Source: Bacillota bacterium (GTDB lineage Bacteria; Bacillota; Clostridia; Clostridiales; Caloramatoraceae). From it: a DNA stretch of 64,000 bases. The stretch is from NCBI GenBank assembly GCA_023415335.1, contig JAEZLD010000048.1, forward strand, positions 1 through 64,000, written 5' to 3'. A program made the position numbers and the translations under genes. This document shows, piece after piece, positions 18,189-37,914 of the stretch (positions within the stretch are counted from its first letter, which is position 1; every line of letters starts with the position of its first letter). The notes beneath the pieces are model-generated. The model was not told the DNA's origin. It did not search any database and saw nothing but the letters and a program-made list of their open reading frames with translations.

Positions 18189-18404
18189 CCTCCGAAATCA
18201 TTTTAGATAAATTGTTGCAACCATTATCTTTGAGAAAATTCTAACATTTATTTTTTTTTATGTATATCCGAAAAAAAATAAAAAAGGTGGAAAATACAAA
18301 AATTTTGTCTTTTTCTGTTGTATCTGTTCACTAGCGTGTAGTATCTTCTCATTATAGATGCAGGCAGGGTTATCATGGATGTGTCCGGAGGCGAGAAATG
18401 CTAA

Positions 18405-18434
18405 CAGCCTTCTATGAAAAAACATAGAAGGCTG
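18405..18434. terminator. Hairpin terminator, copy 2 of the duplicated 35-nt element
   Basis: It carries the same cagccttctatgaaaaaacatagaaggctg + TTTTAT as the copy at 9656-9686 (35/36 nt identical). Confidence 0.55.
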
Positions 18435-18580
18435 TTTTATAATTATTAAAGGTTCACCTAATCAGTATATTAAATTTGCCTACTAAATCAGAAGCCTCCG
18501 CTGATGCTCCTTCAAAAGACATCAGGTCAAGCTACTTGTTAATGAGTCAGGAGAAACATTACAGTAAAGAACAGGTCACC

Positions 18581-19608: not shown

Positions 19609-19828
19609 ACGGGGAGTATCTTATGTTTGTAAAACCAGCGGCTTCAAACTCTCAAACTATATCTAAATAGTTTTCTCCAGTAAGTCCCCAAGAGGATGCT
19701 GGAATTTAAGCCTCTCCAGTATGATTGTTCGTGTTTCCGCAGCCAACTAAAGAAAATAGCAAAGCCAATGCCAAACACAAAGATATAACCCTTCTCACTT
19801 TGCCCACCTCATAGAATCAACGCAGATA

Positions 19829-20890: not shown

Positions 20891-21625
20891 TCAAATAACC
20901 TCCTCAACTTCAATAAACACTACGCTAAGATCATCGTTTGAACCGTTTTTTAGGGCTTCTTCTATTATCTTATTGCACTTTTCTGTTGCTGCCATGTTTT
21001 GGATTAATGTGGCTTCCAGAAAATCAAGAGAAACATACTCATGAACACCATCTGAGGTGAGCAGATATTTTTTCCCTTTTGTAATAGATGAAACAGAGAT
21101 CTTTGCGGCGTAGTTTTCATTACCTCCACCTAAGCAACTAGTAATCTCATTCTTGTTACATAGTTCAGCTTCCTCATATCGTTGCATGCTACAAAGGTAG
21201 TTATAAACCGTATGATCCGATGTCAGCTGTTTTAAGTAATCGCCTTGCAACACATAAGCCCTGGTATTTCCCACATGAATAAGTTGATATTTCGTTTTGA
21301 AAAACAGGATCCCTGTTAGCGTCGTAGCCATATCCGAAAACTTGGGCTCCTGCTTTGCCTTTTCTAAAAGTGCAGTATTAATATCTAGGATCTCCGAACG
21401 AATATCAATACTCATGTCTATTGCAAGATCCCTTAAGGCATTTACAACAAAGTTTGATGCAACGGCACCACCGGCATTACCCCCAACACCGTCTGCAACA
21501 CAAACGATTCCACTTTGAACAGTGTCCAAAACCTGGCAACTATCCACAACAACATCTTTCCCAACAAGAACCGCGTCTTCGCTGGCTAATTTGTTTTTCC
21601 CAGCCTTTGTAACTACGCAGATCAT
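20891..21625 (-). CDS. PP2C-family Ser/Thr protein phosphatase
   Basis: It has the motifs 'VADGVGGNAGG', 'TSDGV' and 'NGSNDDLSVV'. Confidence 0.85.
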   Translation of the reverse strand: MICVVTKAGKNKLASEDAVLVGKDVVVDSCQVLDTVQSGIVCVADGVGGNAGGAVASNFVVNALRDLAIDMSIDIRSEILDINTALLEKAKQEPKFSDMATTLTGILFFKTKYQLIHVGNTRAYVLQGDYLKQLTSDHTVYNYLCSMQRYEEAELCNKNEITSCLGGGNENYAAKISVSSITKGKKYLLTSDGVHEYVSLDFLEATLIQNMAATEKCNKIIEEALKNGSNDDLSVVFIEVEEVI

Positions 21626-23517
21626 TAAATCGCCTCTTTAGTGCAGGTTAAAGCATACGGCATATTTTCAGCATCTATATCTTCAATCCTGATTCTGGCA
21701 TCGCCTTTCACGCCATGGTCAAACATATATCTTGCCAAAGGATTGATGAGTAAGCTTTCAACAAAGTTTCCGATTCCTCGACCACCGTTTGCAAGATTGC
21801 CCAACGCCTTTTCTTCCAAAATCTTCATAGCCTTTTCCGACAAAGTCAGCTCAATGTGTTTCTCTGTAACCAGGTTCCTAATAAGCTTATTAACCTGTGC
21901 CTCAAGGATAATCTTTGCTACAGGAGGACGAATGAAGTCAAAGACCACAATGTTTTCACCAATTCTATTCAGAATCTCAGGGCGTCCCAGCTCAAGTTTG
22001 AAATAATCCTCAATAGCCTGTCTTACGCGAGTTTGGACTTCTGAATATTCCATCTCCGCTGTAACATTGGGTTCTCTTACGCCAAGATTATTTCTTGTGT
22101 AAATTCCAAGGTTGCTAGTGAAGATTATGATACATTCAGAAAAATAAACCGTATTACCCTGGCCGTCCGTCATTCTACCATCTTCCAAGATTTGCAGGAA
22201 TTTATCGAAGATAGACGGATGTGCCTTCTCAATTTCATCAAACAGGAGGATAGAGAAAGGATTTTCCTTAACTGCGTTTGTTAGCTGGCCTCCTGCTTCA
22301 TATCCAACATATCCTGGAGGCGCTCCCAGCAATTTTTGGTCGCTGTGACTCTGGCTGTATTCACTCATATCAAATCGAATACAGCAGCTCTCGTCTCCAA
22401 ACAGTTTCTCGGCCAGCGTCTTTGCGGTTTCCGTTTTACCAGTACCAGTCGGTCCTGCAAAGAAAAGAATTCCCTTGGGCTTGGCGTGGGAAGAGCTCTG
22501 TAATCCAGCCATGCCGGTAACAGCTCGTTTTACAACATCCAGTGTTTTTATGATAGCAAAATCCTGACCTTTTACGCGCTTTTGGAAATCTGCGTGAGCT
22601 GTCTTTAATTCATTCTCATCAAGGGCATCCCAAGGATTCTCTTTAATTCCATAACGGTATAAATCAATTACCGATGCCATCTGTCTAATTCTGGTCTTTT
22701 CATTTTTACAAAGTCTTCTTAGCCCATTGATCTCAGTAAAGCTAAACCCTTCAGTAAGGCCTACAAATTTATCTTGAATCTTATCAAGTTCTTCCGGATG
22801 TTCTTGATAATAAGGAAAATCTTCATCATATACATCTGCAGCGAAAAAGCTCATGAAATTTTCTCCTTTAATGAGCCGTTCGCGTTCTTCTTTGGAAGGG
22901 GTTCCAAGGCTTATGGTCTTCACATTGGGATTATCCAAATAGAACCAAGCAGGAATATCGTTGACCTTATTAACGATCATTACAACAATATTTTTTAATG
23001 TCCCGTTTTCTGTACGGACATCCTTTCCTTCCATAGAAGATAGGATTAAGTTTGTGAAACTATCTACTTCAGATTGTTCTATTCCATCGGGAGTCGTAAT
23101 GTATCTTGAAGCAAGATTCATAACAATTGCAGTAGACTGTTTATTTTGATTTACAGCAGTTCTAATTATAGAAGTTGCTGAATTACTCTTTCCCTTAAAA
23201 TCACATCTTATGTATTTACCTTCAAGTTTTGCGTTTGCAATCTCAGCAAAAGACTCAACATGACCTTCCTCACAAGAATTATAAAATCCCTGCATGCTGT
23301 CAAAAAAGACAATCGATTGATATCCAAGGTCCTTAAAATAATAGTGCAGGTACTCAGGCAAGCGCAAAATGCTGCCTTTAGAAATGCTTCCCTCTGTAGG
23401 GTATTGATACACATCGAGAACATTGCCTTCGAGAATAATCAAGGGTTTGATTCTGCTAAAAATACCCAGTTCTCTGTGCCATTTTGGAATATATTCTTCC
23501 ATTTTCCTGCCTCCCAC
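21625..23517 (-). CDS. AAA+ ATPase with a ClpA/ClpB D2-like C-terminal module and a divergent ~330-aa N-terminal region
   Basis: It has Walker A 'GPTGTGKTETAKTLA', 'LLFDEIEKAH' and the sensor region 'IIIFTSNLG'. The N-terminal half is unrecognised. Confidence 0.8.
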   Translation of the reverse strand: MGGRKMEEYIPKWHRELGIFSRIKPLIILEGNVLDVYQYPTEGSISKGSILRLPEYLHYYFKDLGYQSIVFFDSMQGFYNSCEEGHVESFAEIANAKLEGKYIRCDFKGKSNSATSIIRTAVNQNKQSTAIVMNLASRYITTPDGIEQSEVDSFTNLILSSMEGKDVRTENGTLKNIVVMIVNKVNDIPAWFYLDNPNVKTISLGTPSKEERERLIKGENFMSFFAADVYDEDFPYYQEHPEELDKIQDKFVGLTEGFSFTEINGLRRLCKNEKTRIRQMASVIDLYRYGIKENPWDALDENELKTAHADFQKRVKGQDFAIIKTLDVVKRAVTGMAGLQSSSHAKPKGILFFAGPTGTGKTETAKTLAEKLFGDESCCIRFDMSEYSQSHSDQKLLGAPPGYVGYEAGGQLTNAVKENPFSILLFDEIEKAHPSIFDKFLQILEDGRMTDGQGNTVYFSECIIIFTSNLGIYTRNNLGVREPNVTAEMEYSEVQTRVRQAIEDYFKLELGRPEILNRIGENIVVFDFIRPPVAKIILEAQVNKLIRNLVTEKHIELTLSEKAMKILEEKALGNLANGGRGIGNFVESLLINPLARYMFDHGVKGDARIRIEDIDAENMPYALTCTKEAI

Positions 23518-23593
23518 TCTTTGTTCTACACGCTATTGATTACTGTTGATTTTTTCTTGAAATATAGTATAACCTTAATCTGGGCAATTCATT

Positions 23594-24175
23594 TTACCCA
23601 CGATATGGGGTAAAGCCTGGCTTATGTATCCCCACAGAAACAATACCGTCTGTCGTCGTAAAATTTTGAATTCTGTTCCCATTTTCCCGTAAATACCAAT
23701 CATACAATCCGCGGTATTTCTCTTTTAAGATGTGAATCCTTTGATTGGTAGATCCACGCAAAACCAGACCAGCATTCTTTTCTTCAATATATGGTCCATC
23801 AACAAGAACTGCAATATAAGGCAGAATATCATTTGCTAGTGAGTTTGTTGCTGTGAATTCCTCGCGGGTATATCCAGTATAGACTAAAATGTCCTCAGAA
23901 ATATCATGAAGTTTCTTTAATAAATCAAGCAATTCTGATGCTTGATCCAGTGGTTCACCGCCAGAAATAGTAAATCCATCAATTGTATGGTCTGTAGCGA
24001 GTCTCTTAATCAGTTCTAAAAGCCTATCAACTGATATCTCATATTCTTCTTTCTGATTCCACAACTCCGGATTACTACAACCTTTGCAGGCGCGTTTACA
24101 ACCACAGAGCCATATACCAACTCTATTACCAGGACCCAAAACTTTTACGGGATACAATATTCTTGCTACATTCAT
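23594..24175 (-). CDS. Anaerobic ribonucleotide reductase-activating protein (NrdG)-like radical-SAM activase, orphan
   Basis: The match to NrdG runs along its whole length: 'KVLGPGNRVGIWLCGCKRACKGCSNPELW' (CxxxCxxC), 'ISGGEPL', 'VYTGYT', 'VLVDGPYIEEKNAGLVLRGSTNQRI'. No glycyl-radical enzyme is nearby. Confidence 0.85.
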   Translation of the reverse strand: MNVARILYPVKVLGPGNRVGIWLCGCKRACKGCSNPELWNQKEEYEISVDRLLELIKRLATDHTIDGFTISGGEPLDQASELLDLLKKLHDISEDILVYTGYTREEFTATNSLANDILPYIAVLVDGPYIEEKNAGLVLRGSTNQRIHILKEKYRGLYDWYLRENGNRIQNFTTTDGIVSVGIHKPGFTPYRG

Positions 24176-24783
24176 CTGTCCACCTTGAAAGTCAAATAAG
24201 CAGCAAGTTCTTGTCTCTCGCCATTAATCACTTTGCCACCAAGGCCAATCTCATCGCCTTCTTGCAATGCGGTCGGTACATCATTGTCAATGGGCTTATC
24301 GTTTACAAATGTTCTGTTTGTGGCACTCAGGTTTTCAATAAAAACCTTTCCAGCAACTATCGTCAATTTTGCGTGCTGACGACTAACATATGAACGCTGT
24401 TTCAAATAGTCCTTCAATTCGGCTTCCCGGCCTATAATCACAACTGGCGTATCAAAAGATTGAGAAAAATCACCACTAATTGAATCTAAAGAATATGAAA
24501 ACTTCTTCTCTTCATGTTTCGTAGGCCGAATATCTGAAATATCCTCTCCACATGTTTTACATTTTCGAGCTTGTGGAGGATTAATCGCACCACATTCACA
24601 AACTCTCGCCAAAGTTCCTTGCGATGCTGGTGGTTCTGTGGGAAGTTCCTTTTGAGCCTCTTCAAGAGCAGCATCCACAATACGAACTCCTGTTAGATCA
24701 CATTCACACTTTCGACACTCTAGCAAAACAGGCAGGTTGTTCTCACCACAGGAAGGGCAAACTTTATATTTCTCCAAAGCCAT
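24172..24783 (-). CDS. Double zinc-ribbon + FHA domain protein
   Basis: It has CPSCG...CRKCEC and CECG...CKTC ribbons. The C-terminal FHA region shows 'VIIGREAE...SRQHAKLTIVAGKVFIENLSATNRTFVND'. Confidence 0.8.
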   Translation of the reverse strand: MALEKYKVCPSCGENNLPVLLECRKCECDLTGVRIVDAALEEAQKELPTEPPASQGTLARVCECGAINPPQARKCKTCGEDISDIRPTKHEEKKFSYSLDSISGDFSQSFDTPVVIIGREAELKDYLKQRSYVSRQHAKLTIVAGKVFIENLSATNRTFVNDKPIDNDVPTALQEGDEIGLGGKVINGERQELAAYLTFKVDR

Positions 24784-26150
24784 TACTCATTCTCCCTTCG
24801 CATTGTTTTTGTGGCAGAACGCTTTTTCCTTCTTCTCGTTGCCATTTCAGTAATTTGTTTACTACTGTGAATTTGATAATCGTTTACATTAATGATTGCT
24901 GCATATTCTGCAGCAGGAGGCGACATTTCAATACGCGTTCCCACAATGACGCCCTTTTCCTTTAGTCTTCTTTCAATCTCTGCAAACTCACCGCAAAAGG
25001 TTTCCATATCTTCCGTTAATTCTCCCACCTCTTCTTCATTGGGGAGCCGGTCTTCATGAGCTATGCCACCAAGTTCCATTGCTATTTGACCATCCGAAGA
25101 AAAGGTGACATTGACGGCAGTACCTTCATCAAAAGAATACAATTCATTTCTAAATTTCTTTCCGCTTTTCTTCTTTACTTCGCGGGAACCCAACAGTTCA
25201 TATCCCATTTCGGAAAGAACCTCTTCCACACAATCACTGATATATTCCTGTTCGCGCTGTTTGACCGCTAACAACTCTATCCTTTCAACTTCTTTTTCTA
25301 TTGTTTCAATCTCTGCAGATCTAAACAAATCAACATTGGACTGGACTCCGGTCAATTGACAAAGCACCTCATATCTATCAAGGAGATCTTTACGCAACTT
25401 TTCTTCTTCTTTTTTCTGCTCCTTGATAAGAGAACTTTTCGCTTCGAGAGCTCTAATAGTTAAACTAGAGAAGGTATGTAGATAATCTATGGACACAATA
25501 CGCCCAAGCGAATTCATTGCCTCCCCAATCTCTTCTTTCAAAGAATTAGGACATTCTTTATCAAGAAACATTGCCTTCAACTTTGCTTCCAGCTCAGTTC
25601 GCTCCGTCTCCAAAGCATCCACTTCAACTGGAGCGCTGAAGTCCAAATAAACATATGCTGCAAGGTCCTCCGCTATACTATCTTGTGCCGTATTTTCAAG
25701 TTTTTCCACAACAACAGTAGCTTGCTGGATTGGTTTCTCTATCTCTTTTTGTAGAGCTTCAACATTCTGCTTAATCTTCCTGATCGCAGCAAGCTGTTGT
25801 TTTTTCTCAGCAAGAGCTTCCTCGCTAATTTGATATTTTTCACTCAAATGAGGTCGATGAGATTGAAGATCCATAAGCAATTCGGTTGACTCCTTCTCTA
25901 TGACACCCAGCATTTCTTGCAAGGACGCCACACAGTTACCATCAACCTCACAGCGCTCATTCAAAAGTTTTAGCCGTGTGAGCAACTCCTCGATAGTTCC
26001 TCTACATCCTAATATGTATGAAACACCTAACTCAATTTGATTAGCACACGATATGCTTTGCTGTTCACAGCGCATTTGTCCGTTGACATTAGCCCGTGCC
26101 CAGCCAGATAATTCATAAACAGATATTTTAGGACCACTCATCCAAATCAC
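24783..26150 (-). CDS. Coiled-coil protein of unknown function
   Basis: It has long heptad-rich E/K/L segments and is translationally coupled on both sides. Confidence 0.55.
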   Translation of the reverse strand: MIWMSGPKISVYELSGWARANVNGQMRCEQQSISCANQIELGVSYILGCRGTIEELLTRLKLLNERCEVDGNCVASLQEMLGVIEKESTELLMDLQSHRPHLSEKYQISEEALAEKKQQLAAIRKIKQNVEALQKEIEKPIQQATVVVEKLENTAQDSIAEDLAAYVYLDFSAPVEVDALETERTELEAKLKAMFLDKECPNSLKEEIGEAMNSLGRIVSIDYLHTFSSLTIRALEAKSSLIKEQKKEEEKLRKDLLDRYEVLCQLTGVQSNVDLFRSAEIETIEKEVERIELLAVKQREQEYISDCVEEVLSEMGYELLGSREVKKKSGKKFRNELYSFDEGTAVNVTFSSDGQIAMELGGIAHEDRLPNEEEVGELTEDMETFCGEFAEIERRLKEKGVIVGTRIEMSPPAAEYAAIINVNDYQIHSSKQITEMATRRRKKRSATKTMRRENE

Positions 26151-26160
26151 CTCAACTCAA

Positions 26161-27852
26161 CTATTCATTCATCAACATTCGCCACTTATCAATTTCTTTC
26201 TTCTTGCCAATCGCAATTAGCCATGTCTCAAGCTGCACATCTAAATTGCCATCATAATCAACAAGTCTATGACATAAGGTCTCAAATTTATCGAAAGACA
26301 AATCCAAACACTCTCTCATGTATCCTGCCAGTTCGCCAACTGTACGGAACTGCTGGTTATCCAGCAGCAATAATTTTTGTCCTGACAAGGTATATGCCAT
26401 ATAATAATAGGTGCGAAGCAAATCCGAATGTTTGCCTTTCTCTAATACATAAGAATCTTCAATGGCTGCCGTAGCCTTTTTAAGAGCTTCATTCTTTGGA
26501 GACACCTGCATTACATACTGAGTTAAAAGTTTTTCATTCAAAACGCTTTCATAATACTTGTACTGAGATTTATCGTGTTTCCAAAGCTTTTCGAGAACAT
26601 CTCGGCCAAATGCGGGAAGACTTTCATACACTTCACCCTTCCAATAGAAGCCCTTCAATTTCGGGTTCAAGCGATACAGCAGTTTCCAAAAAATAATATC
26701 ATCTTTTCCATTAGAGCGGCTGGCTTCCTCTTCAGCTTCCATGCATTTTTTCGCTGCCTCTTGATCAAAAACTCGAAAATGTGCTGATAAAAGGCCTCGG
26801 AAAAGATGTTTCTTTCCTTCGTTCCAGTTCTTTGCCAGAGACGCAGCAAGCCCTTCTATGCTGGTTATTTCTTCGTTTAGGAAATGGTAAATAGGCATAT
26901 TTCCTTTGCCTACATTTCCAATTCCTTCACCAGGGATGATAAGGCTTTCACCGTTGATCCACTTTACAACCTCTTCGTATGTCCAGCGGCGATTTGGATT
27001 GTTTTTGTTTTTGCGATAACTGATATCATAATATGTCAATGCAGAAATAAAATCTTGCAAAAGCACGGGCATGCTTTCCGGAAACGGTATTCTTTGAACG
27101 GATACATATTGTTCAATCTCTTCCGGTTGCATATTTGCATATGGAGTATATCCACAAAAAAGCTCAAACAGCGTTATGCCAAAAGAGTAATAGTCAGATC
27201 CCTCATAAAAAATATTCTTAAAAGTCTCTGGTGCTGAATACTCAGGTGTCATGCCTGTTTTCGTCACAAGAAGAGTATGTTTATCATCAACAGCGGAACT
27301 GATTCCAAAATCGATAATGGACACAGTTTTACCATCATCATTTAACATAATATTAGATGGTTTAAGATCTTTGTGAATAATTCCTGCCTGATGGATCGCA
27401 TGTAGCCCCTCATTAATGTTGGGAATAATACTTTCAACCAATTCCTCATAGTTAAATGTTTTTCCTTGCAAACTTCCATTTTTGTAGTAAGGAATAATTT
27501 CTACAGGAAAACCATTATGTTTTGCTGTTTCATGAAGCTTTGCAACATAAGGTGAATTGATGCTCAGTAACGCCTTAATCACATCTTCCTTGATTGCGAA
27601 TTTCCTCTTGTAAATCTTCGCAATATACTTTTTCCCATCATTCGAGCAAATATACAAATCAGCTTCTCCAGAGGCAACCTCCAATCGTTCTTCAATTGTA
27701 TACTTGTCGCAAATTATTGTTCCGCGATCAATCAAATCCTCTTGTCTACTGATAGAGTCGATTTGATTGCCATACTGCTGGACGAGCTCTGAATTAATCG
27801 CAGTCGGTGCTGATTCTATGATATTAGGATTAATTACTGTACGATTATCCAC
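26161..27852 (-). CDS. Hanks-type Ser/Thr protein kinase with a ~270-aa C-terminal domain of unknown function
   Basis: It has 'YIAKIYK' (beta3 Lys), 'HKDLKPSNIML', 'DFGIS' and 'TPEYSAPE'. Confidence 0.85.
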   Translation of the reverse strand: MDNRTVINPNIIESAPTAINSELVQQYGNQIDSISRQEDLIDRGTIICDKYTIEERLEVASGEADLYICSNDGKKYIAKIYKRKFAIKEDVIKALLSINSPYVAKLHETAKHNGFPVEIIPYYKNGSLQGKTFNYEELVESIIPNINEGLHAIHQAGIIHKDLKPSNIMLNDDGKTVSIIDFGISSAVDDKHTLLVTKTGMTPEYSAPETFKNIFYEGSDYYSFGITLFELFCGYTPYANMQPEEIEQYVSVQRIPFPESMPVLLQDFISALTYYDISYRKNKNNPNRRWTYEEVVKWINGESLIIPGEGIGNVGKGNMPIYHFLNEEITSIEGLAASLAKNWNEGKKHLFRGLLSAHFRVFDQEAAKKCMEAEEEASRSNGKDDIIFWKLLYRLNPKLKGFYWKGEVYESLPAFGRDVLEKLWKHDKSQYKYYESVLNEKLLTQYVMQVSPKNEALKKATAAIEDSYVLEKGKHSDLLRTYYYMAYTLSGQKLLLLDNQQFRTVGELAGYMRECLDLSFDKFETLCHRLVDYDGNLDVQLETWLIAIGKKKEIDKWRMLMNE

Positions 27853-27854
27853 CT

Positions 27855-30800
27855 TTAAACACCTCCAACCACAGTAACCTTATCGTCGATTACATTAATT
27901 TTCTCATTTGCAATCAGTTTTTCAAGAGCTCTTGCCATTGCTACATTGATTTTCTCACCGCGTCTTGAATATCCAATTGCCCTTGTTGTTTCTTCAATGA
28001 GTGCTTTTGTGCTAAGTCCAAATGTGTTAGAAGCAACAGCTATCATAGCAAGCCCCAATTCATCTGTAGAAATAAGGTTAATCGCTCTTTGATTGTATCC
28101 ATCCTCAGGAATACGCACTTTGAGATTATCAAAACCTTTAAGGGTGACAAAATCATCTTTAATCTCCAGCCGTTGTCTGCCCGCTGTGGTATTCATTGCC
28201 ATATCAACCATGCGACGCACCAGACTCGTTACCTTTTGATTACCAAAAGCACCCGCCATTCTCTGGTACAACAAATCCTTATGTATCGGCTGCTCAATAC
28301 CGACAATATAAACTATCCTTGTTAATACTTCGGTCATATTGTCGTATGTGTTTGGCATTGGTGCATCCCACCAATTGGCCTCCACATAGCGTTCAAATCC
28401 ATACGGATTATCCTCGTCGCAATTAATGCCACCACGGTTTTGTGTACCTTTATAAGATTCCTCCGTAACTTCTTCAACCATACTAGACAAATCTTCTTGC
28501 AATAATTTCTTCTGCTCAGGTTCTTCAATTTTAACAGCAGTATGTTCGGATGCATCCTGTATAAACGAGAGGAGTTTAGCTCCTTCCACCTCGGGATTAA
28601 TATACCACTCTGCAGACCATACTCTGTACATATTCCAACCCATGGAATTCAGCACAGATCTTCTCAGATGATCTCTATCTCGTGCTGTATGAGCAGAAAC
28701 ATAAGAGTAACCATCACACTCAATACCTGCAATATATTTGTCTTCATCGTTACGATCCACAACGGCAATATCAATACGATAACCAGAACAACCAACATAC
28801 TTTTTGATAGTATATCCATTCTTTTCTACAAATTCCCCAACCATATCGACAAAGCGATCCTGCCCTTGTACATTTCTAGACGAGGCTAACGCAACTGCGC
28901 CATTCATAGCAAACTCAATGTACGAGCGTAACATTCTGATGCCTTCTGATTCTGTTCTGGAAAGATCAATATCGGAAGGAAGAATAGAACTAATAAGCTT
29001 TATGTTTCGCTTTGCTCTAGTAATCGCAACATTTAGTCTTCGCTCACCGCCTTGGTGTCCAAGAGGGCCAAATCGCATGTGCATCGGGCGCCCAGATTCC
29101 TTTTGATCCTTTGTTTGCGCATAACAAATACTAAAGAAAATCGTGTCGCGTTCATCGCCCTGAACATTTTCCAGATTCTTTACAAAGAACTCTTCTTCAT
29201 TACCTTCCTTGAAGAAGAATTCATATTCCGGATTTTGCTCTCTAAACCGCTGCACTTCCAAAGAAATCTGTTGCTGTTGCTTTTCGCTGAAGGCAATGAT
29301 TCCCAGGGATCTGTCCGGATGCTTATCAATATGCTTCTTGATTAATTCAACACACCGCTTAGCCTCTGCAACATTACAGTTTCTACCGCCGCCTTCATAA
29401 TATCCATCTTCAACATATTCGAACTCAACACCACAATCCTCTTCGTGTTCCACGCTACTTGGGAAAGTGACCAATTCATTCTTGTATATCTCTTGATTAG
29501 AAAAGGCAATGAGATGCTCGTGCTTGCTTCTATAATGCCAAAGCAATGTACGATTTGGCAGCACACTTGCGGTTTCTTCCAGAATAGAATCGTAAACAAT
29601 ATCTTCGTATTCATCATCAGAATCAAAAGCGTCGGAATCATTGCTTGTACTCGTAGCAAAGAAATTTGTAGGAGGCAACTGTTTTGTATCACCAGCAATG
29701 ATAACCTGCTTTCCTCTGAAAATAGCACCAATTGCATCTTGTGGGAATATCTGTGAAGCCTCATCAAAAATAACCATATCAAATTGGTAGGAGTCTGCTT
29801 CAAGGAAATAAGCCACAGACAAAGGGGACATCATCAAACATGGTTTTAATGTCAGCAACAAATTGGGAATTGATCTAAAGAGCATTCTCAAAGGCATAAT
29901 GCGACGCTTTTTTCCCATTTCTCTTTGAAGCACCTGCAACTCATCTTTTGCTGTTGTGACTCTGTTGGTATCAGGAAATCTGCTAATTATTTTCTCGCGG
30001 ATTCTCATCTGTGCAACAGATAGCTGCTTAGTATCCAATTCCACAAAGCGTTCCAGCTTCGCCTCTTGAGTTCTTCTACGGAAACTTTGGACAGCCGGAG
30101 ATTTATCCATTGCCATAGTAATCCAGAGTTTATAAAACTGTTTTTCAAAACAAGCCTTAATTTCACTTGCCGGAACTACACCTTCGGAAATCAAATCAAC
30201 ATATTTCTTTAGTCCTGCATTAACACACTCAGCAGTTGTTTCTCGATAATCAATCCACTGGTCCAAAGAATTGACATTGCTTCGGCAAGCAGAAACTTTC
30301 TCATTGATTCTTGCAATTTCACTTTGTTGCAAGGAAGCTCCATATTCAAACAACGAAGCAAAGTAGCTAATAGGCTCTTCTACTGGAGCAAGAAGAAGTC
30401 TTATATCTGTAGTTGCAGCTTCCAGATTGTTTCTTTCCGCTTCACTATTACAGTATGTACGGATAAATCCGGGCGCAGCAATGCTGAAGCTGTTGTTTTC
30501 AAACAAAGAATTCACAGCTTCAATATCATCAATTAGTTCTGCCCACTTAGTGTCAATTCCAGCATAGCGCTCTCCAAACAAAAACACTAAGCTGTCTTCA
30601 TTTTGTGCCAGTGACAGTCTATAGTTTCTTGCACTATTAGCCGTATTAATGTTTTCAACAAGCTCTGCCATTGCATCTTCGCAGGTGGCAAATCTCCGTA
30701 TATATTCAACGGAAGAATTCAGTCCATTAGTATGCTTGCTCAAGAACAGAATCCTCTGTAGTATTTCGTCATTCGTAGTTGCAAAAACAGGATCCTTAAA

Positions 30801-33800
30801 GTCTGAGGAAATATTATTGAGTTTAACAGAAAGTGAATCTAGCCTTTCCTCTAAAAGTACACTTACAGCAGATGCAATCTGTTCTAATTGGTCAGAATGA
30901 ACATCCTTATTGCTTAAGATATTAATAAGAACTTCGGGCACTCCAGTTTCTCCAAAGCAATTCTTCAACTTTCGGACCATATCAAAGGCATCTAACAAGC
31001 TTTGCCACGGGGTATCCACATCATCATAACGTGAACCCAAAACCACATCAAAACGATGCTTATTTTCTTCAAACCATAGCTGTTCTGCTTTGAATGCCTT
31101 GATTTGCTGTAGCAGGGAAATAATCATTGCATCATTGATTTTTCCACCGATTGTTCTGCAAACAGCTCGAATAGTTTTAATGTCCTCTTTGTATGCTGCT
31201 TTGAATATCTTAAAGAAATTCACATACTCTGTTTTGAAACGCAACAGCATTCCGTCAACATCGATTTTGAAGACATCTTCTTCCCATTGATCCAAAATAG
31301 CTTTTTTGATACCCAGGTATGTTTGTGCATGGGACTGTCCTTGGGTAATCAATTTTTTAGCCTCGGCTGCTATCTCGTCATTAAACCATTCACGCTTAAC
31401 GGTATTTGTGTTAAGCACAGCCCTGGCAACAGCTCCTGTCTCTTTGATTGCATTGAAGTTTTCACCAAAATTGATACCTAACATAGATTTTATACATACA
31501 TAAGCGTTATACACTTCATTCCATTCTTGTTCAAGTGAATTTGCGTATACTTTAAGCTGGCTAATGCCTCCAATAATGTCTGCTTCGGAAGACTTTTTAT
31601 AGTTACCGCACTTTCTGATGTTGTCTAGTGATTCTCGGACAGAATCTATCCAAGCCTGTAAATCTTCATCCAAAATACTCTCCACAAACAAAGCTTTCAC
31701 TTTGTCAAGGCATGCCAAATACTGCTGCTGTTTTTCTTTTTCTTCTACAGCAACAGTGCGAAGTTTATGACGCCGCTGGACCTGTGCCCATTCCTCAGGG
31801 AACAACGGAGCGACAACAAACATTTCCAAAAACTCCGCCATCTTTTTGGCCCCACTAAGGGTACGTTCTCCAGACAGGCCGAGACGGGCATGAATTTCAT
31901 GTAGAGTGTCATTAAGCTTTGCAAGCTGGTCTTCGAGCAAGTGGGTTTTTTGTATAAAACTGTTTTTTAAGCTTTGACTTGCTTGGGTAATTGTTGTTCC
32001 GTTCCACGGATGTTCTTCTAGCTTCATTCCCAGCGCTAAAAGAGCTTTTTCCATATTTGCAACACAATACATCATGGCATTATATTGGGAAGAAGTCACA
32101 GAATGAATATCGTCAATTTCAAACTGGATTTCCGGAACAGAATCCAAAATAGAATATTTACCAAAGGCGGTATATAAGCTTTCTCCCAATGGTTCAATTT
32201 CACTGTGGAGCTCTTCTGCATATGCATTAAGATGTTTGCGATCATGGAAAAGTTCATCCAGCTCTATAACAACAGAATCCTTAACTCTCTGGTGCGGAAG
32301 TTTTAGGTTGGCTCCAATGTTTTCCAGAATATCTTTTTTGTTTGCTTTGTGGCTATGGAGAGCTAAGCAGAAATCCTCCAGTTGCACTTCAGTTAATCTC
32401 TTCAAAACAACTTGAAGGGCGGCGGCCTTTTCAGAAACAAACAAGATTTTCTTTCCATCAGCCAATCCTTCGGCAATAATATTAGTAATTGTCTGACTCT
32501 TGCCTGTACCAGGAGGGCCTTGCATAACGAAGCTAACCCCCATCTTAGATAGTAAAATTGCTTCTTGCTGACTTGAGTCTGCGTTAACCACTTGATACCA
32601 ATCGCGGGGTGAAACATCATCAAAGGCAAAATTCTGATATGATGCAGGAATTTGATTTGCTGAAGATACATCTCCCGCGATAGCCCTCAAAGTAGGACTA
32701 CTCATCATTCGGGCACGGTGATTGTTGAGATCATGGTACATGCTGATCTTCAAAAAGGACAACAAACCCATGCTCACTTCACGGATAATTTTCCATCCTC
32801 GCTTGTCAACAATCTCTTCAATCTGCTGCAAATATTGCTGGATTGATGACTCATCCTTCAACTCAAATGTAGGCAAATCTAAACCATACTGCTCGTTGAA
32901 CAAATAGTCCAGCGTAGGATTTACCTCAATTTCGTCATCATACCGACTCAGTGTGTACGGAGAGTGTATGGATTCTAATCCAAGTGTTACCGGCATCATC
33001 AGTAATGGAGATTTGAGCCATGGAGAAGAATCCTTGCTATTTTCTTTCCACTCGACAAAACCAAATGATATGTACAAAATGTTTGTACCTTGTTCATCCT
33101 TGGCTAACTTAGCTTTATTTCTTATATTGCGTAGTGTTCTTTGCCTTTCGACAATAGAGCCTTCCGTTTTAATGTCTCCAACATGAACAGGGAGAGGATA
33201 AGACAATGTTTCCAGCAACGAAAGAACAGAAAATGTTCTTAAATCCGAATCCTTATCAATCGGTCTTTGGAATGTAAGTTCCTCTTCACCAATAGCCAAT
33301 CTGTTAAACAGTTCAGAAAAACCCGGTTCAATAATCCGCAAAGTGGAAAGTTTTGTCTCTCGATAATTAATCATTCGATTGCGCTTACCAAGATCCAATA
33401 GCTGATGCTTCCAAAAATCAATTCGTTTATCTAATGTTTCCAGATCATCTGCTCTAACATGGATACCATCCATTGCATCAGGAAGTTTTTTTCCATCAAA
33501 AGCATTTTCAACATGCTCAACACTTGCTTCTCCCCTCTGAGTTGACTCCACCGTTGACGTTATTGTTTCAACTGGAGAATCATTTCTTACCACTCGTCCC
33601 TCTGGAGCAAAGTTTTCTGTTTTGCCTGCTTCGACAGCAGCCTGCTGCGTCTGAGTAGTAGACGCAGGAACTGGAGTAGATTCAACAGCTCGAACCGGAA
33701 CCTGGTTTTGTTGTGCTCTCACTTCGTTTATCCTCTTTGCACTCAAATAATTCTCTTTGGCAGCATCGTTGTAAGATGCTGGGTTGGATGAATACCGGCT

Positions 33801-34013
33801 GAACGCTGATACCCATTGTGTATTCCCCAAAGTAGAGCAACGCGTAAAAGCGTTGTTGCAAACAGGACAAGTATGAGGTTTTGCCAAATTTATATAACTG
33901 TTATTAGAAAATCCATTAGCAATAATTTGTCTACTTATTCTTGCACAAATAGGGCAAATGACCGTAGGAACTCTTGAACCGTTTGAACAATTTAAGATGA
34001 TTAAATCCACCAT
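27855..34013 (-). CDS. Giant (2052 aa) zinc-ribbon + DUF4011 + SF1 (Upf1/DNA2-like) helicase + DUF3320 + DUF559/Vsr-like PD-(D/E)xK nuclease protein (Hhe-like)
   Basis: It has Walker A 'VMQGPPGTGKSQTITNII' and motif II 'VIFDEASQ...GDTKQLPP'. The C-terminal nuclease region shows 'YRIDIAVVDRNDEDKYIAGIECDGYSYVSAHTARDRDH'. The N-terminus carries CPIC...CPVC ribbons. Confidence 0.85.
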   Translation of the reverse strand: MVDLIILNCSNGSRVPTVICPICARISRQIIANGFSNNSYINLAKPHTCPVCNNAFTRCSTLGNTQWVSAFSRYSSNPASYNDAAKENYLSAKRINEVRAQQNQVPVRAVESTPVPASTTQTQQAAVEAGKTENFAPEGRVVRNDSPVETITSTVESTQRGEASVEHVENAFDGKKLPDAMDGIHVRADDLETLDKRIDFWKHQLLDLGKRNRMINYRETKLSTLRIIEPGFSELFNRLAIGEEELTFQRPIDKDSDLRTFSVLSLLETLSYPLPVHVGDIKTEGSIVERQRTLRNIRNKAKLAKDEQGTNILYISFGFVEWKENSKDSSPWLKSPLLMMPVTLGLESIHSPYTLSRYDDEIEVNPTLDYLFNEQYGLDLPTFELKDESSIQQYLQQIEEIVDKRGWKIIREVSMGLLSFLKISMYHDLNNHRARMMSSPTLRAIAGDVSSANQIPASYQNFAFDDVSPRDWYQVVNADSSQQEAILLSKMGVSFVMQGPPGTGKSQTITNIIAEGLADGKKILFVSEKAAALQVVLKRLTEVQLEDFCLALHSHKANKKDILENIGANLKLPHQRVKDSVVIELDELFHDRKHLNAYAEELHSEIEPLGESLYTAFGKYSILDSVPEIQFEIDDIHSVTSSQYNAMMYCVANMEKALLALGMKLEEHPWNGTTITQASQSLKNSFIQKTHLLEDQLAKLNDTLHEIHARLGLSGERTLSGAKKMAEFLEMFVVAPLFPEEWAQVQRRHKLRTVAVEEKEKQQQYLACLDKVKALFVESILDEDLQAWIDSVRESLDNIRKCGNYKKSSEADIIGGISQLKVYANSLEQEWNEVYNAYVCIKSMLGINFGENFNAIKETGAVARAVLNTNTVKREWFNDEIAAEAKKLITQGQSHAQTYLGIKKAILDQWEEDVFKIDVDGMLLRFKTEYVNFFKIFKAAYKEDIKTIRAVCRTIGGKINDAMIISLLQQIKAFKAEQLWFEENKHRFDVVLGSRYDDVDTPWQSLLDAFDMVRKLKNCFGETGVPEVLINILSNKDVHSDQLEQIASAVSVLLEERLDSLSVKLNNISSDFKDPVFATTNDEILQRILFLSKHTNGLNSSVEYIRRFATCEDAMAELVENINTANSARNYRLSLAQNEDSLVFLFGERYAGIDTKWAELIDDIEAVNSLFENNSFSIAAPGFIRTYCNSEAERNNLEAATTDIRLLLAPVEEPISYFASLFEYGASLQQSEIARINEKVSACRSNVNSLDQWIDYRETTAECVNAGLKKYVDLISEGVVPASEIKACFEKQFYKLWITMAMDKSPAVQSFRRRTQEAKLERFVELDTKQLSVAQMRIREKIISRFPDTNRVTTAKDELQVLQREMGKKRRIMPLRMLFRSIPNLLLTLKPCLMMSPLSVAYFLEADSYQFDMVIFDEASQIFPQDAIGAIFRGKQVIIAGDTKQLPPTNFFATSTSNDSDAFDSDDEYEDIVYDSILEETASVLPNRTLLWHYRSKHEHLIAFSNQEIYKNELVTFPSSVEHEEDCGVEFEYVEDGYYEGGGRNCNVAEAKRCVELIKKHIDKHPDRSLGIIAFSEKQQQQISLEVQRFREQNPEYEFFFKEGNEEEFFVKNLENVQGDERDTIFFSICYAQTKDQKESGRPMHMRFGPLGHQGGERRLNVAITRAKRNIKLISSILPSDIDLSRTESEGIRMLRSYIEFAMNGAVALASSRNVQGQDRFVDMVGEFVEKNGYTIKKYVGCSGYRIDIAVVDRNDEDKYIAGIECDGYSYVSAHTARDRDHLRRSVLNSMGWNMYRVWSAEWYINPEVEGAKLLSFIQDASEHTAVKIEEPEQKKLLQEDLSSMVEEVTEESYKGTQNRGGINCDEDNPYGFERYVEANWWDAPMPNTYDNMTEVLTRIVYIVGIEQPIHKDLLYQRMAGAFGNQKVTSLVRRMVDMAMNTTAGRQRLEIKDDFVTLKGFDNLKVRIPEDGYNQRAINLISTDELGLAMIAVASNTFGLSTKALIEETTRAIGYSRRGEKINVAMARALEKLIANEKINVIDDKVTVVGGV

Positions 34014-34070
34014 ATTAATACCTCATCACCTCTAAAAAAATGGTTCTTATTGTTGTAATCAATCAGAAAA

Positions 34071-34277
34071 CTAATCGTTCTCTATGACTTCCATCAAGTC
34101 TCCTAGGTCACAATGAAAAATCTTACAAAGGCGAAGCATGACTTCCATTGAAACGACGCGGTCTTGATTAAGTTTTGTCATAGTATATTGCGAAAGTTCA
34201 GCCGCCTTCGCAAGTTCACTTTTTTTCATTTTGTTAGTTATCATAATAGTCCACAGTTTATCATATCTAACTATCAT
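34071..34277 (-). CDS. XRE-family HTH transcriptional regulator (68 aa; internal Met start preferred)
   Basis: 'MITNKMKKSELAKAAELSQYTMTKLNQDRVVSMEVMLRLCKIF' is a Cro/CI-type HTH. An AGGAGG lies upstream of the ATG at 34277. Confidence 0.7.
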   Translation of the reverse strand: MIVRYDKLWTIMITNKMKKSELAKAAELSQYTMTKLNQDRVVSMEVMLRLCKIFHCDLGDLMEVIEND

Positions 34278-34332
34278 GCTCTTCCTCCTATATGTAAAAT
34301 TTAATCTACTTTCAGCTAGATACAAAAATACA

Positions 34333-34347
34333 TGATATAGTATATCA
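34333..34347. promoter_or_regulatory. Perfect palindrome TGATATA-G-TATATCA in the XRE promoter region (candidate operator)
   Basis: It is a 7-bp inverted repeat ~55 nt upstream of the XRE start. Confidence 0.35.
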
Positions 34348-34623
34348 CAGTTCTCGTAAAGCTTCAATGTATTTTATCGAACTAACAAGAATTACACTAG
34401 AATGTGTCGATTTAAATCATCACCTAAAGTGAAAACATCCCACACCAGGCCGCGAAAACCCAGTGCGGGGTGCAAGGTCTTAATATGCCGGGATACCGTA
34501 TCCCAGGATCTCATAATGTCCGACCCCATAGCTGCGCTGTGCACAGGAATCGCCGGAGTCGCCCTCAGCGGTGTAAACTCAACAGTTATCGATAGTTTTA
34601 GCTTCAGTACAAAATAAAAATAG

Positions 34624-34662
34624 GCAAAAAAATAGAACCCCATGAGTTCTCGACTCATAGGG
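34624..34662 (-). terminator. Rho-independent terminator downstream of lysS
   Basis: The minus strand reads CCCTATGAGT-cgaga-ACTCATGGGG followed by TTCTATTTTTTT. Confidence 0.5.
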
Positions 34663-34833
34663 CTCTCACTGCATTTAGTTTTCATTTAGTGCAAGCGATT
34701 GCGATTTGCATGTTTTTGTCGTGAATACCGGCGACAAAATGGAGAGGTTTGGAGAAAAAATTGGATAGTCACCACACCATATCGCAAAATCAATCGCAAT
34801 AAACCGTTATAAGGGGACCTGCAGGGACTTAAT

Positions 34834-36360
34834 TTAGTCCAAAGGCTTCATGGTAGGGAACAGCAATACGTCCCTTATGGAATAGGAATCTGTAAGGAAC
34901 ATCACAAGTCTGTCTATACCTATTCCCAGACCTCCGGTAGGAGGCATTCCTATCTCCAGGGAGTTTACGAAATCATCATCCATTGCATATGCTTCGTCGT
35001 CTCCCAGCTCCTTTTCATTAGCCTGCTGCTGGAATCTTTCCAGCTGGTCTATTGGGTCGTTAAGCTCTGAATAGGCATTACCCAGTTCCCTTGCAAACAC
35101 AAAGGCCTCAAACCTTTCGGTAAGCTCTGGGTGACCCTTTTTCTTCTTTGTAAGAGGCGAAACCTCTATTGGATAATCTAAAATAAAGGTTGGTTGTATC
35201 AGGTGCTCCTCAGCGTATGCCTCAAAGGCTGCATTTAATAGATCTCCCTTGGAGCAGTCTCCAAGCTTCTTCTTCAGCTCATCTAATACCTTTGGAAGCT
35301 GCTTTTTAACAACCTCTCTTGCTTCATCATCTGTCTTTATCTCGTTAAAGTCCACACCTGCATACTGCTTTACTGCATCATGCATGGTAAGCCTTCGCCA
35401 AGGCGGCTTAAAGTCAATCTCAGTACCCTGGTAGGTTATCTTGGTAGTTCCATTAACCTCTGTGCAGCAATATGCACACATGTTTTCCATAAGCTCCATC
35501 ATTCCATTATAGTCTGTATATGCCTCATATAGCTCTATCATGGTAAACTCAGGGTTATGCCTTATATCTATTCCTTCATTTCTGAAGTCCTTACCTATTT
35601 CATAAACCCTTTCAAAGCCTCCAACTATAAGCCTCTTCAGGTAAAGCTCGGTGGCTATCCTTAGGTGTAGGTCTATATCCAAGGCATTGCTGTGGGTCAT
35701 AAAGGGCCTTGCAGCAGCTCCACTGGCAATAGTGGAAAGTATTGGTGTCTCAACCTCTATATAATTTCTGTCGTCCAGGAACTTTCTTATAGCCTTTATT
35801 ATCTGGGTTCTCTTATAGAAGGTATCCCTTACCTCAGGATTCACTATAAGATCCACATATCTCTGCCTGTACCTTAAATCAGGGTCCTTAAGTCCATGCC
35901 ACTTCTCCGGAAGAGGCTTTAAGGATTTGGTAAGCAAAACAAAGTCCTTAACATGTATGGATATTTCCCCAGTCTTTGTCTTAAATACCATGCCTTCAAC
36001 ACCGATAATATCTCCCAGATCCAACGTTTTAAAAAACTTAAGCTTTTCCTCACCTACATCATCAATTTTAATATACATCTGAAGCTTTCCATATCTGTCA
36101 TGTATATCACTGAAGCCGGCCTTTCCATGAACCCTCTTGGACATAAGCCTTCCAGCAACCCTTACATCCTTACCCTCAAGCTCCTCATAGTTATCCTTTA
36201 CATCCTTTGAGGTGTGGGTTCTATCATACTTAACTATCTCAAATGGGTCCTGGTCTTTATTCTTCAACTCATCCAGCTTCTGCCTTCTCTGCATTATAAG
36301 CTCATTGTATTCATTCTCGAGCTTTTCTATTTCCACCTGATTTAATTCATCATTTGCCAT
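34834..36360 (-). CDS. lysS: Lysine--tRNA ligase (class II)
   Basis: It is full-length LysRS with an OB anticodon-binding domain and class II motifs ('FRNEGID', '[10 protein letters not shown]'). Confidence 0.95.
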
Positions 36361-36396
36361 ATTGTACCCCCGGTTATTTATTTGCCTTTATGGTCT

Positions 36397-36900
36397 CTAC
36401 TTTCTCTTGATTTCAAGAACCTTAAACTTTCTTATTCCTTCTGGAACCTGTATTTCAACAATTTCTCCAACCTTGTGTCCTAAAAGTCCTCTTCCTATTG
36501 GTGACTCATTGGATATTTTCATCTGGATGGGGTCAGCCTCAGCAGAGCCAACTATAGTAATCTCCATCTCATCATCGTACTCTATCTCATTAACCCTTGT
36601 AGTTGCTCCTACGGAAATAACATCCGTCTTAACATCATCCTCATCAATAATCTTCGCATTTTTAAGCATATTTTCAAGGGTTGCAATTCTTCCCTCAACA
36701 AATGCCTGCTCGTTTTTCGCCTCATCGTATTCTGAGTTCTCACTAAGATCTCCAAATGAAAGAGCAGTCTTTATCTTCTGGGTGACTTCCTTTCTCCTGA
36801 CTGTTTTAAGCTGTTCAAGCTCATCCTCAATCTTTTTTAATCCCTCATATGTAAGTATGACCTGCTTGCTGTTTTCGCTCATTTTACGAATCCCCTCCAT
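36397..36900 (-). CDS. greA: Transcription elongation factor GreA
   Basis: It has the N-terminal coiled coil '[17 protein letters not shown]' and a C-terminal FKBP-like domain. Confidence 0.95.
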
Positions 36901-37131: not shown

Positions 37132-37914
37132 CTACCTTTTCAAAACAACCTTACCTTGCTGCATAATTGCATCAACAAAGAAGCCTTCTCTCTCTGCCAT
37201 ATTCCATATTCTATCCTTTCCAATGCATGACAGATATCCTTGTACAGCTTCCTCCCGCAGGCCCCCCATGTCTTTATAGGCAATACCTACATCATCAAAC
37301 CACCGGCCTGATTGCTTAGGCTTTGGAAACCTCATAAGAAGTGTTGGCCGGTCCTTAGTTAAAAGCTGTGTATAGTCATCATTGTCAGCTGCAAGTATCA
37401 CCGCATCAGCCCTTTCTGAGGCTTTTATAGGGTCCTCTACTACGGCTGCCGAAATTCCATACTCTATCATGGCCTTCTCCGCAATATCCATAAGCCTCCC
37501 TTTGTTTTCCTTGGTAACAAGAAGTATTCTTCTGGCTATAGGGCATAACAGTTTAAATGCACACATACCTTCGTAGGTAGCTCCATCTCCTATTACCACC
37601 TCGCCCAGCCTCAGGTCACAACCTAAGCTTACGCTGTAGTAATCCAGTGCCCTAATCAGCAAAGAATAGTAGCACAGTTTGGAATAGTTTATATTATAAT
37701 CCCTCGAAACTACTATCTTAGAAATTCTGCCTGCCATTTTCTTTGCCTGACGGAGTTTTAAAGCTTCATTTTCTTCAGATACATTTATCCAGGTATAGTC
37801 TATATCTTCAATACTATCCTTTATTGTTTCAGGTGGCAAAATATACCTTAGAAAGCTGCTTTTTCTTTTCCCCTCTGTGTATTTTTCCTTGGAGATAACG
37901 GCAAAGCCCTGCAT
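37132..37914 (-). CDS. Hypothetical protein (260 aa)
   Basis: It is an ORF between greA and dusB with no motif I recognise. Confidence 0.45.
   Translation of the reverse strand: MQGFAVISKEKYTEGKRKSSFLRYILPPETIKDSIEDIDYTWINVSEENEALKLRQAKKMAGRISKIVVSRDYNINYSKLCYYSLLIRALDYYSVSLGCDLRLGEVVIGDGATYEGMCAFKLLCPIARRILLVTKENKGRLMDIAEKAMIEYGISAAVVEDPIKASERADAVILAADNDDYTQLLTKDRPTLLMRFPKPKQSGRWFDDVGIAYKDMGGLREEAVQGYLSCIGKDRIWNMAEREGFFVDAIMQQGKVVLKR

Follow-up and report, generated by a model that had tools for sequence, protein, structure and literature searches.

When the surroundings of a large helicase-nuclease gene were analysed in contig JAEZLD010000048.1 of a Bacillota bacterium (Clostridia; Caloramatoraceae; positions 1 to 64,000), the gene was found to stand first in a conserved cassette of eight genes. 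We infer that this cassette is a horizontally moving, multi-gene anti-phage or anti-plasmid system, and we put the probability of this reading at roughly 60 %. Phospho-signalling most likely gates the helicase-nuclease. Throughout the text, the window refers to the full 64,000-nucleotide (nt) stretch, amino acid (aa) numbers refer to the window proteins, and related loci are denoted by L numbers. The window sequence derives from metagenome assemblies. The coordinates of all features are collected in Table 1.

From 34277 down to 19829, all genes lie on the minus strand and are separated by 0-76 nt or overlap. The kinase gene starts with a GTG 2 nt past the helicase stop codon and its ribosome-binding site, GGAGGTG, lies within the 3' end of the helicase gene, so the helicase-kinase junction is considered translationally coupled. 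Gene order was identical in relatives with 75 % (L001), 53 % (Pelotomaculum schinkii, L002) and 49 % (L003 and L004) helicase identity, in each case between unrelated flanks. Between 75 % and ~40 % helicase identity, order and orientation stay fixed and the junction remains coupled, with either a 2-nt gap or an 8-nt overlap.

A scan with one genome per species retrieved 44 loci, almost all from Clostridia of gut, rumen or termite metagenomes, together with Desulfosporosinus and Blautia isolates. Twenty-eight loci were evaluable, which required the helicase 3' end plus at least 2.5 kb of downstream sequence. A full kinase gene is located directly downstream in 22 of the 28, a shorter partner consisting of the kinase C-terminal domain only in three, and neither in the remaining three, all of which are Actinomycetota with 36-38 % helicase identity. 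Where at least 9 kb of downstream sequence was available, 6-7 of the 7 module genes were present in 13 of 21 loci. When the N-domain of the AAA+ protein was used as a probe, 422 metagenome loci were obtained, and the helicase precedes the kinase in 36 of the 41 that contain enough upstream DNA. The coupled junction, the shared order across 75-40 % identity, these counts and the invariant motifs described below argue for a conserved unit.

A defence role is suggested by several lines of evidence. The closest profile matches of the helicase-nuclease are defence families, and the flanks of the cassette vary between genomes. One copy is carried together with an integrase and a WYL regulator on a 44-kb extrachromosomal record of Aristaeella lactis, and a PADLOC scan of 116 flanking open reading frames (ORFs) found a complete type I restriction-modification system adjoining 3 of 18 loci. 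In addition, optional genes are found inside the cassette between the radical S-adenosylmethionine (SAM) and AAA+ genes, namely a BspA-type leucine-rich repeat gene (LRR_5; L086 8898-10004), a gene for a 394-aa tetratricopeptide repeat (TPR)-like protein (L003 20742-21926) and a 107-aa ORF (L001 10900-11223), all of which may be specificity or sensor add-ons. In some loci, an unfamiliar 242-aa protein is encoded behind the kinase gene. Within the same loci, the helicase is the least conserved protein (42-55 % identity), compared with the kinase (55-74 %) and the AAA+ protein (67-88 %), and thus evolves faster than these partners. No relative was found when viral contigs were scanned with the AAA+ N-domain, and a phage origin is thus not supported.

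The helicase-nuclease is encoded by a single uninterrupted ORF, as the preliminary description of this locus had proposed, with the ribosome-binding site GAGGTGATGAGG directly 5' of its ATG. The proposed combination of a DUF4011 region, a Upf1-type superfamily 1 (SF1) helicase and a Vsr-type nuclease was also recovered; both flanking domains were found and the catalytic residues are unsubstituted, an outcome in favour of that architecture. In Pfam, the Walker A part of the helicase (aa 480-544) was matched by AAA_19, AAA_30 and AAA_11, while the C-terminal part of AAA_11 was matched at aa 1407-1449; AAA_11 and AAA_12 each matched at ~1e-17. The ~850-aa insert of the helicase gave zero domain matches in the Pfam search, and the Hhe profile of NCBIfam spans it in a single stretch (aa 291-1847). 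Among solved structures in the PDB, sequence relatives were IGHMBP2 (2e-11) and Sen1 only, over the Walker A region, and the motor was therefore assigned to the Upf1-like SF1B group, whose types of Walker A and motif II and whose two RecA-like domains are present. TIGR00376 matched the helicase at 3e-24, far under its cut-off.

Motif conservation was assessed in alignments of 15 and 27 homologues and in the 120 closest database homologues. The GPPGTGKS and DEASQ motifs, which had been described as competent in appearance, are invariant in the aligned homologues and were both present in 120/120 of the closest ones. The alignments also contain many invariant columns in DUF4011 and invariant nuclease residues (D1748, E1765-C-D1767-G, R1780-D1781, R1784 and W1793). 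Judged by these intact motifs, the helicase-nuclease looks catalytically competent.

The nuclease had been named a Vsr/DUF559 domain with an intact motif. Its Vsr fold and its invariant residues stand, and the family is MTES_1575, which was defined as a Vsr-fold restriction-endonuclease domain (PMC3710099); DUF559 remained below threshold on this region (E 0.021; 15.1 bits vs. the Pfam cut-off of 20.6). The domain is not C-terminal as had been stated, and is followed by a tail of ~230 further residues. This tail contains the DUF3320-like region that had been anticipated as a flank. The family is recorded for several homologues of the helicase, but the window match remains below the 25-bit Pfam cut-off. 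DUF3320 overlaps two winged helix-turn-helix domains (PMC3710099).

Two CxxC...CxxC ribbons, considered atypical of the family, had been reported at the N-terminus. Just one set (C20/C23 with C49/C52) is present in this protein, and it is the FHA protein of the operon that has two ribbons. The ribbon is also the norm in the clade, since the pattern CxxC-x(15-40)-CxxC was found in 106/120 of the closest helicase homologues. When aa 1-480 were modelled with AlphaFold2, the zinc ribbon and two-helix module was confident (predicted local distance difference test, pLDDT, ~90) and the DUF4011 fold was of moderate confidence. We also considered that the ribbon is required for the association with the kinase module and rejected this, as ribbon-less helicases (e.g. 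L008) carry the module as well. Additional folded inserts occur within the N-terminal linker of homologues P0034, P0007, P0015, P0060 and P0092, either a zinc finger resembling SWIM (CxC...CxH) or a domain of ~90 aa with 'VTFPG...Y.YISDDL', and the linker is thus an insertion hotspot.

Profile libraries were used for family placement. The PADLOC profile PDC-S37 matched with 1400.6 bits (E = 0) in three stretches, the best of which aligned aa 1113-2046 with profile positions 639-1544 of 1550, and the PADLOC profile of Hhe (PDLC02194) matched with 562 bits; the library gives no curated cut-off for either. In NCBIfam, the model 'anti-phage protein ProA' (NF058533.1) scored 1303.4 bits vs. an equivalog cut-off of 1500, with the best stretch covering profile positions 996-1903 only, and the Hhe model (NF042953.1) scored 881.6 bits vs. 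a cut-off of 2000, so neither cut-off was reached. By these scores, the protein belongs to the Hhe/ProA/PDC-S37 superfamily, is nearest to ProA/PDC-S37 and is an equivalog of neither curated family. On sequence grounds it is a new subfamily-level member of a known superfamily. The earlier comparison with Hhe therefore holds for the domain architecture but not for curated Hhe, as ProA and PDC-S37 score higher. In RefSeq, the relatives are merely labelled 'DUF4011 domain-containing protein'.

The alignment to ProA and PDC-S37 is end to end over the C-terminal half of the helicase, the nuclease and the tail, with aa 1113/1114-2017/2046 matched to the last ~900 positions of the profiles. PDC-S37 is a catalogued single-gene candidate, whereas the window gene heads a conserved eight-gene operon. 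A full-text literature search for ProA and PDC-S37 yielded no describing publication, and the origin of the name 'ProA' used by NCBI was not traced. Hhe is reportedly (Gao et al., 2020) a single-gene defence of the DUF4011-helicase-Vsr type. The window protein shares this domain order, in which DUF4011 is followed by an SF1 helicase split by a large insert and then by a Vsr-type nuclease, and its catalytic motifs are intact: DUF4011 (PF13195) is N-terminal to the helicase, the Upf1-like AAA_11/AAA_12 core retains Walker A and motif II, and the nuclease after the helicase keeps D1748, E1765, D1767 and D1781. Unlike Hhe, it has an additional N-terminal zinc ribbon and disordered linker and is located in a conserved, translationally coupled operon, whereas Hhe is a standalone gene; the single-gene organization of Hhe and PDC-S37 is not what the window gene shows. 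Seven T7 genes from the DNA-metabolism class are candidate triggers of the one-gene Hhe system, suggesting a response of Hhe to phage DNA replication activities (10.1101/2024.10.10.617714).

The operon link between the helicase-nuclease and a 'kinase signalling module' had been noticed before. The link is real and deeply conserved, but this term understates the gene content. The kinase consists of a kinase domain (~aa 69-280) and a C-terminal domain (aa ~295-563), and all of 74 homologues retain K79, HKD162, N167, DFG and APE. The FHA protein keeps its phospho-threonine-binding residues GR, SRxH and NxT without exception among 80 homologues. The phosphatase scored 135.6 bits against the Stp1 family, which is below the cut-off; among 58 homologues, DGVGG and the D-G of xSDG are invariant and DD is retained in 57 (one sequence is gapped).

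The AAA+ protein contains a system-specific N-domain (aa 1-~298) and a single ring domain of the ClpB nucleotide-binding domain 2 (NBD2) type. In the PDB, only aa 299-618 were matched by ClpB NBD2; across 88 homologues, no variation was seen in Walker A, in Walker B (DEIEKA) or in the GYVG pore loop. The N-domain is the most conserved part of the cassette (mean identity of 80 % in 11 loci), has no Pfam family and no PDB sequence match, and could represent a first AAA+ domain that has degenerated or else a domain that binds substrates. The radical SAM enzyme scored 118.3 against TIGR02491 (NrdG) vs. a cut-off of 126.1; C26 and C30 are invariant and C33 is present in 82 of 83 homologues. A glycyl-radical partner was also considered among the cassette proteins, and the sole, superficial resemblance to the motif, a nuclease strand with 'GCSGY', was rejected because it belongs to the MTES_1575 core. 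Given the motif conservation in these partners, the module looks like a phospho-threonine writer, reader and eraser combined with a protein-threading ATPase and a SAM-radical enzyme.

Two further proteins complete the cassette. The coiled-coil protein has no match in Pfam, PADLOC or NCBIfam, and its family comprises 713 representatives (50 %-identity clusters), all of one size class. In the last protein, an N-terminal DUF4236 is combined with a hydrophobic stretch (membrane segment) and with a C-terminal domain that is conserved; its gene is usually the last of the cassette and is present in most complete loci. Upstream of the helicase-nuclease, a helix-turn-helix (HTH) gene starts with an ATG at 34277 and has an AGGAGG ribosome-binding site. 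A 68-aa HTH protein is encoded at the same place in the relative with 75 % identity and few other loci have an HTH gene, so this is a local regulator confined to a few related loci.

The gene located directly after the helicase in L019, L024 and L043 encodes a protein of 265-340 aa without a kinase domain. It matches only residues ~295-563 of the window kinase and is followed by unrelated housekeeping genes. No PDB sequence relative of the kinase C-terminal domain was found, and its standalone homologues have no Pfam or PADLOC family. The presence of such standalone genes after helicases suggests that the domain is an older partner of DUF4011 helicases which carries a kinase in the window clade. 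The family may be a general DUF4011 helicase partner.

Table 1 Features of the cassette and of the helicase-nuclease (window coordinates unless a related locus is named)
Feature	Position	Strand	Remarks
Cro/C1-type HTH regulator (HTH_26, XRE-like), ~68 aa	34071..34277	-	Pfam E 1e-17
Helicase-nuclease, Hhe/ProA/PDC-S37 superfamily	27855..34013	-	2052 aa
N-terminal module, aa 1-102: Cys4 zinc ribbon (C20, C23, C49, C52), then two helices	33708..34013	-	
Disordered Thr/Ser/Pro-rich linker, aa 105-183	33465..33701	-	pLDDT ~32
DUF4011 (PF13195), aa 204-369	32907..33404	-	Pfam E 2e-32
Walker A GPPGTGKS, aa 499-506	32496..32519	-	Invariant in homologues
Helical insertion of ~850 aa, aa 545-1400, separating motifs I/Ia from II	29814..32381	-	
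Motif II DEASQ, aa 1417-1421	29751..29765	-	Invariant in homologues
AAA_12, second RecA-like domain, aa 1486-1675	28989..29558	-	Pfam E 1e-17
MTES_1575 Vsr-fold restriction endonuclease-like domain, aa 1721-1818	28560..28853	-	Pfam E 7e-30
Weak DUF3320 match (winged-helix region), aa 1899-1933	28215..28319	-	21.2 bits
Ser/Thr protein kinase, 563 aa	26161..27852	-	Pkinase E 8e-31
Coiled-coil protein with small C-terminal alpha/beta domain, 452 aa	24783..26141	-	AlphaFold2 mean pLDDT 83
Protein with two zinc ribbons and FHA (phospho-threonine-binding) domain, 203 aa	24172..24783	-	FHA E 5e-14
NrdG-like radical SAM enzyme, 193 aa, CxxxCxxC (C26/C30/C33)	23594..24175	-	Fer4_12 E 9e-32
AAA+ protein, 625 aa	21625..23502	-	AAA_2 E 7e-49
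PP2C-type Ser/Thr phosphatase, 244 aa	20891..21625	-	PP2C_2 E 3e-10
DUF4236 membrane protein, 353 aa	19829..20890	-	DUF4236 E 7e-22
Standalone homologues of the kinase C-terminal domain	L024 6718-7515; L019 14282-15205; L043 9588-10610		Window counterpart 26161-26970

The substrates and the order of events in the following scheme are our proposal. The Upf1-like SF1 motor, together with DUF4011 and the winged-helix tail, would load either on foreign DNA or on intermediates of replication or recombination, and the Vsr-fold nuclease would cut DNA after the helicase has loaded. The kinase is probably tethered to the helicase via its C-terminal domain, because this domain is a standalone helicase partner in sister clades. 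It may report helicase engagement, or license it, by phosphorylating Thr-rich disordered segments, and the linker of the helicase (aa 105-183) is a candidate phospho-acceptor region. The phospho-threonines would be read by the zinc-ribbon-FHA protein, and the single-ring AAA+ protein of the ClpB NBD2 type could remodel or strip a bound factor, with the coiled-coil protein as a possible scaffold. Finally, PP2C would reset the switch.

A more far-reaching proposal is tentative, and we would sooner doubt it than adopt it. The cassette could be one integrated immune machine, in which a Hhe-like helicase-nuclease is toggled by eukaryote-like Ser/Thr phospho-signalling and in which the AAA+ and radical SAM proteins perform steps without counterpart in described defences. 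Examples would be the unfolding of an inhibitor under the direction of phosphorylation, or a radical reaction that modifies a protein or nucleotide. In this picture, the C-terminal domain of the kinase would be a dedicated module for docking to the helicase, standalone at first, which later captured a kinase.

When the cassette was compared with other known systems, partial similarities were observed. Mokosh type I combines a Ser/Thr kinase, a Upf1-like helicase and a nuclease (10.1101/2022.05.11.491447), and the same three activities are joined in one locus here. The PADLOC MkoA model (PDLC03920) matches both the window helicase (3e-27) and the window kinase (4e-23), with the matches limited to the generic kinase and Walker A regions. 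However, MkoA is a fusion of kinase and helicase and MkoB is a phospholipase D (PLD) nuclease, whereas the window kinase is a separate protein and the nuclease has a Vsr fold and is fused to the helicase. DUF4011, FHA, PP2C, AAA+ and radical SAM components belong to the window cassette and not to Mokosh. Domain searches of the window system found no PLD domain, and the system was not assigned to Mokosh type I.

The threonine-phosphorylation pathway of type VI secretion comprises the kinase PpkA, the PP2C phosphatase PppA, Fha1 and the AAA+ protein ClpV. The cassette likewise combines a kinase of the Hanks type with a PP2C, a reader with an FHA domain and an AAA+ protein of the ClpB family, a likeness that we regard as analogy only, and its FHA and AAA+ proteins gave sub-threshold matches to the TagH and the TssH/ClpV models, respectively. 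Neither the window nor the inspected related loci contained type VI secretion genes. In contrast to type VI secretion, the hosts of the window type are Bacillota and the AAA+ protein has a single NBD2 ring and a system-specific N-domain. The KKP system of Pf prophages is a kinase-kinase-phosphatase defence triggered by a phage replication protein (PMC11341870). It resembles the cassette in the use of a Ser/Thr kinase and a PP2C-type phosphatase as an anti-phage switch and in the kinase fold. Unlike the cassette, KKP is borne by Pseudomonas prophages and contains no helicase-nuclease, FHA, AAA+ or radical SAM protein.

Several observations weigh against a defence system of eight genes that act together. 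The helicase-nuclease is below the cut-offs of both curated families, Hhe and ProA. The window cassette itself is located among housekeeping genes, with no integrase or other defence gene nearby; on one side is lysS with its terminator and on the other an ABC-transporter/two-component locus, and the wider setting is the mfd...spoIIE-tilS-ftsH-coaX-dus-greA-lysS region, a conserved one, of a spore-forming Firmicute. Incomplete loci were also found. L011 and L013 contain the helicase and the kinase only (L013 also the coiled-coil protein), and the metagenome loci L105, L109, L110 and L125 contain the kinase-to-PP2C module without a helicase. The latter shows that the module can stand alone and might have a non-defence role, and no recognisable effector was found in L105, L110 and L125 when these were inspected. 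A DD-carboxypeptidase gene adjoins the helicase-less module in two of these three loci. With regard to the scheme, the roles of the radical SAM, coiled-coil and DUF4236 proteins are left unexplained. Foldseek retrieved spectrin-like and coiled-coil noise only for the coiled-coil protein, and fold searches with DUF4011 and the N-terminal region retrieved no solved-structure relative. The linker is richer than the rest of the protein in Thr (8.6 % vs. 4.9 %) and Pro (8.3 % vs. 3.0 %) in 104 homologues, but any disordered linker shows comparable enrichment.

The helicase-less loci are also what would be expected if the helicase-nuclease were an autonomous, single-gene defence of the Hhe/ProA type and the downstream genes a separate, co-travelling system, like neighbours in a defence island. 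Hhe and PDC-S37 are indeed catalogued as single-gene systems, and the Actinomycetota helicases with 36-38 % identity are without the module. We nevertheless consider such a separation unlikely. Two independently acting units are difficult to reconcile with the fixed order and orientation and the coupled junction, maintained from 75 % to ~40 % identity between many different flanks. Furthermore, the kinase C-terminal domain occurs as a standalone gene right after the helicase in clades that have no other part of the module, which points to a physical partner of the helicase and not to a chance neighbour.

It is also improbable that the core immune machine is the phospho-signalling module, with the helicase-nuclease as its DNA sensor and not as the killing effector. 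In that case, the helicase would activate the kinase on phage DNA, and toxic phosphorylation, unfolding of host or phage targets by the AAA+ protein or the DUF4236 protein would result in growth arrest, as in abortive infection. Such an arrangement agrees with a module that is better conserved than the helicase and able to stand alone, with the membrane segment of the DUF4236 protein, and with optional LRR/TPR-like genes that resemble extra sensors. KKP shows that a kinase whose toxicity is released by a phage replication protein can serve as the effector (PMC11341870). However, the catalytic residues of the nuclease are invariant, which indicates that cleavage is under selection; no recognised toxin domain was found, and DUF4236 is absent from several otherwise complete loci.

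That the cassette is non-immune and serves in a DNA-damage or replication-stress response, with the helicase-nuclease in repair, or in PrkC/PrpC-like developmental signalling of sporeformers, is very unlikely: its setting in the mfd-to-lysS region, the lack of matches in viral contigs, the SRAP, Y-family polymerase and LexA genes adjoining some related loci and the DD-carboxypeptidase beside helicase-less modules would fit, but the variable flanks, the integrase-bearing 44-kb copy, the type I restriction-modification systems beside 3/18 loci, the nearest profile matches, all of them to defence families, and the faster evolution of the helicase relative to its partners do not.

Further features of the window were also noted. 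A search of Rfam over 18000-36500 gave no match, and the folding of the GC-rich intergenic stretch 34425-34600 was no better than that of shuffled sequences (z = -1.2). Two strong terminator-like hairpins follow lysS at 34634-34666 and 34439-34469 and are overlapped by a 97-aa ORF (34392-34685, minus strand) between lysS and the HTH gene, which has no family and is probably not a gene. A 180-aa ORF (19066-19608, minus strand) was rejected as a cassette gene, as it has no family and is not conserved beside the cassette. This ORF and two others on the minus strand, 7358-8917 (519 aa) and 37132-37914 (260 aa), have no Pfam or PADLOC match. At 2788-3699 and 3696-4937 (minus strand), overlapping tandem genes encode WYL-domain proteins of 303 and 413 aa in a PafB/PafC-like pair arrangement. 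Outside the window, on the right flank of cDHS1 in Pseudomonas aeruginosa (PMC10250203), a large DUF4011 core gene that borders a defence hotspot is adjoined by a small hypothetical gene and one for a radical SAM protein. As gene order, this adjacency of DUF4011 and radical SAM genes is reminiscent of the window cassette.

Neither PADLOC 2.0 nor NCBIfam 20 has a curated model of this system that matches any of the seven cassette genes besides the helicase-nuclease; the RefSeq names of these seven are generic. Neither the eight-gene cassette nor the partner family of the kinase C-terminal domain was found in the open literature searched, and no publication describing the operon was found in the literature on DUF4011, DUF3320, MTES_1575 and DUF4236. 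An eLife 2020 paper on conflict systems holds matching keywords; it treats other systems and was rejected as a source. The more interesting content is the operon rather than the N-terminal zinc ribbon.

Large DUF4011 helicase-nucleases are catalogued as one-gene defences, whereas here a whole clade has this gene within an eight-gene unit. The single-gene calls of defence finders can thus mask larger systems. The hosts of the cassette clade are mostly human-gut and rumen Clostridia, in which the cassette is widespread. If functional, the system would provide a tractable case of phospho-threonine writer, reader and eraser control of a bacterial nuclease, and would place a small radical SAM enzyme and a single-ring unfoldase of the ClpB type in a new context. 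The family of the kinase C-terminal domain would then offer a first handle on the partner needs of DUF4011 helicases.

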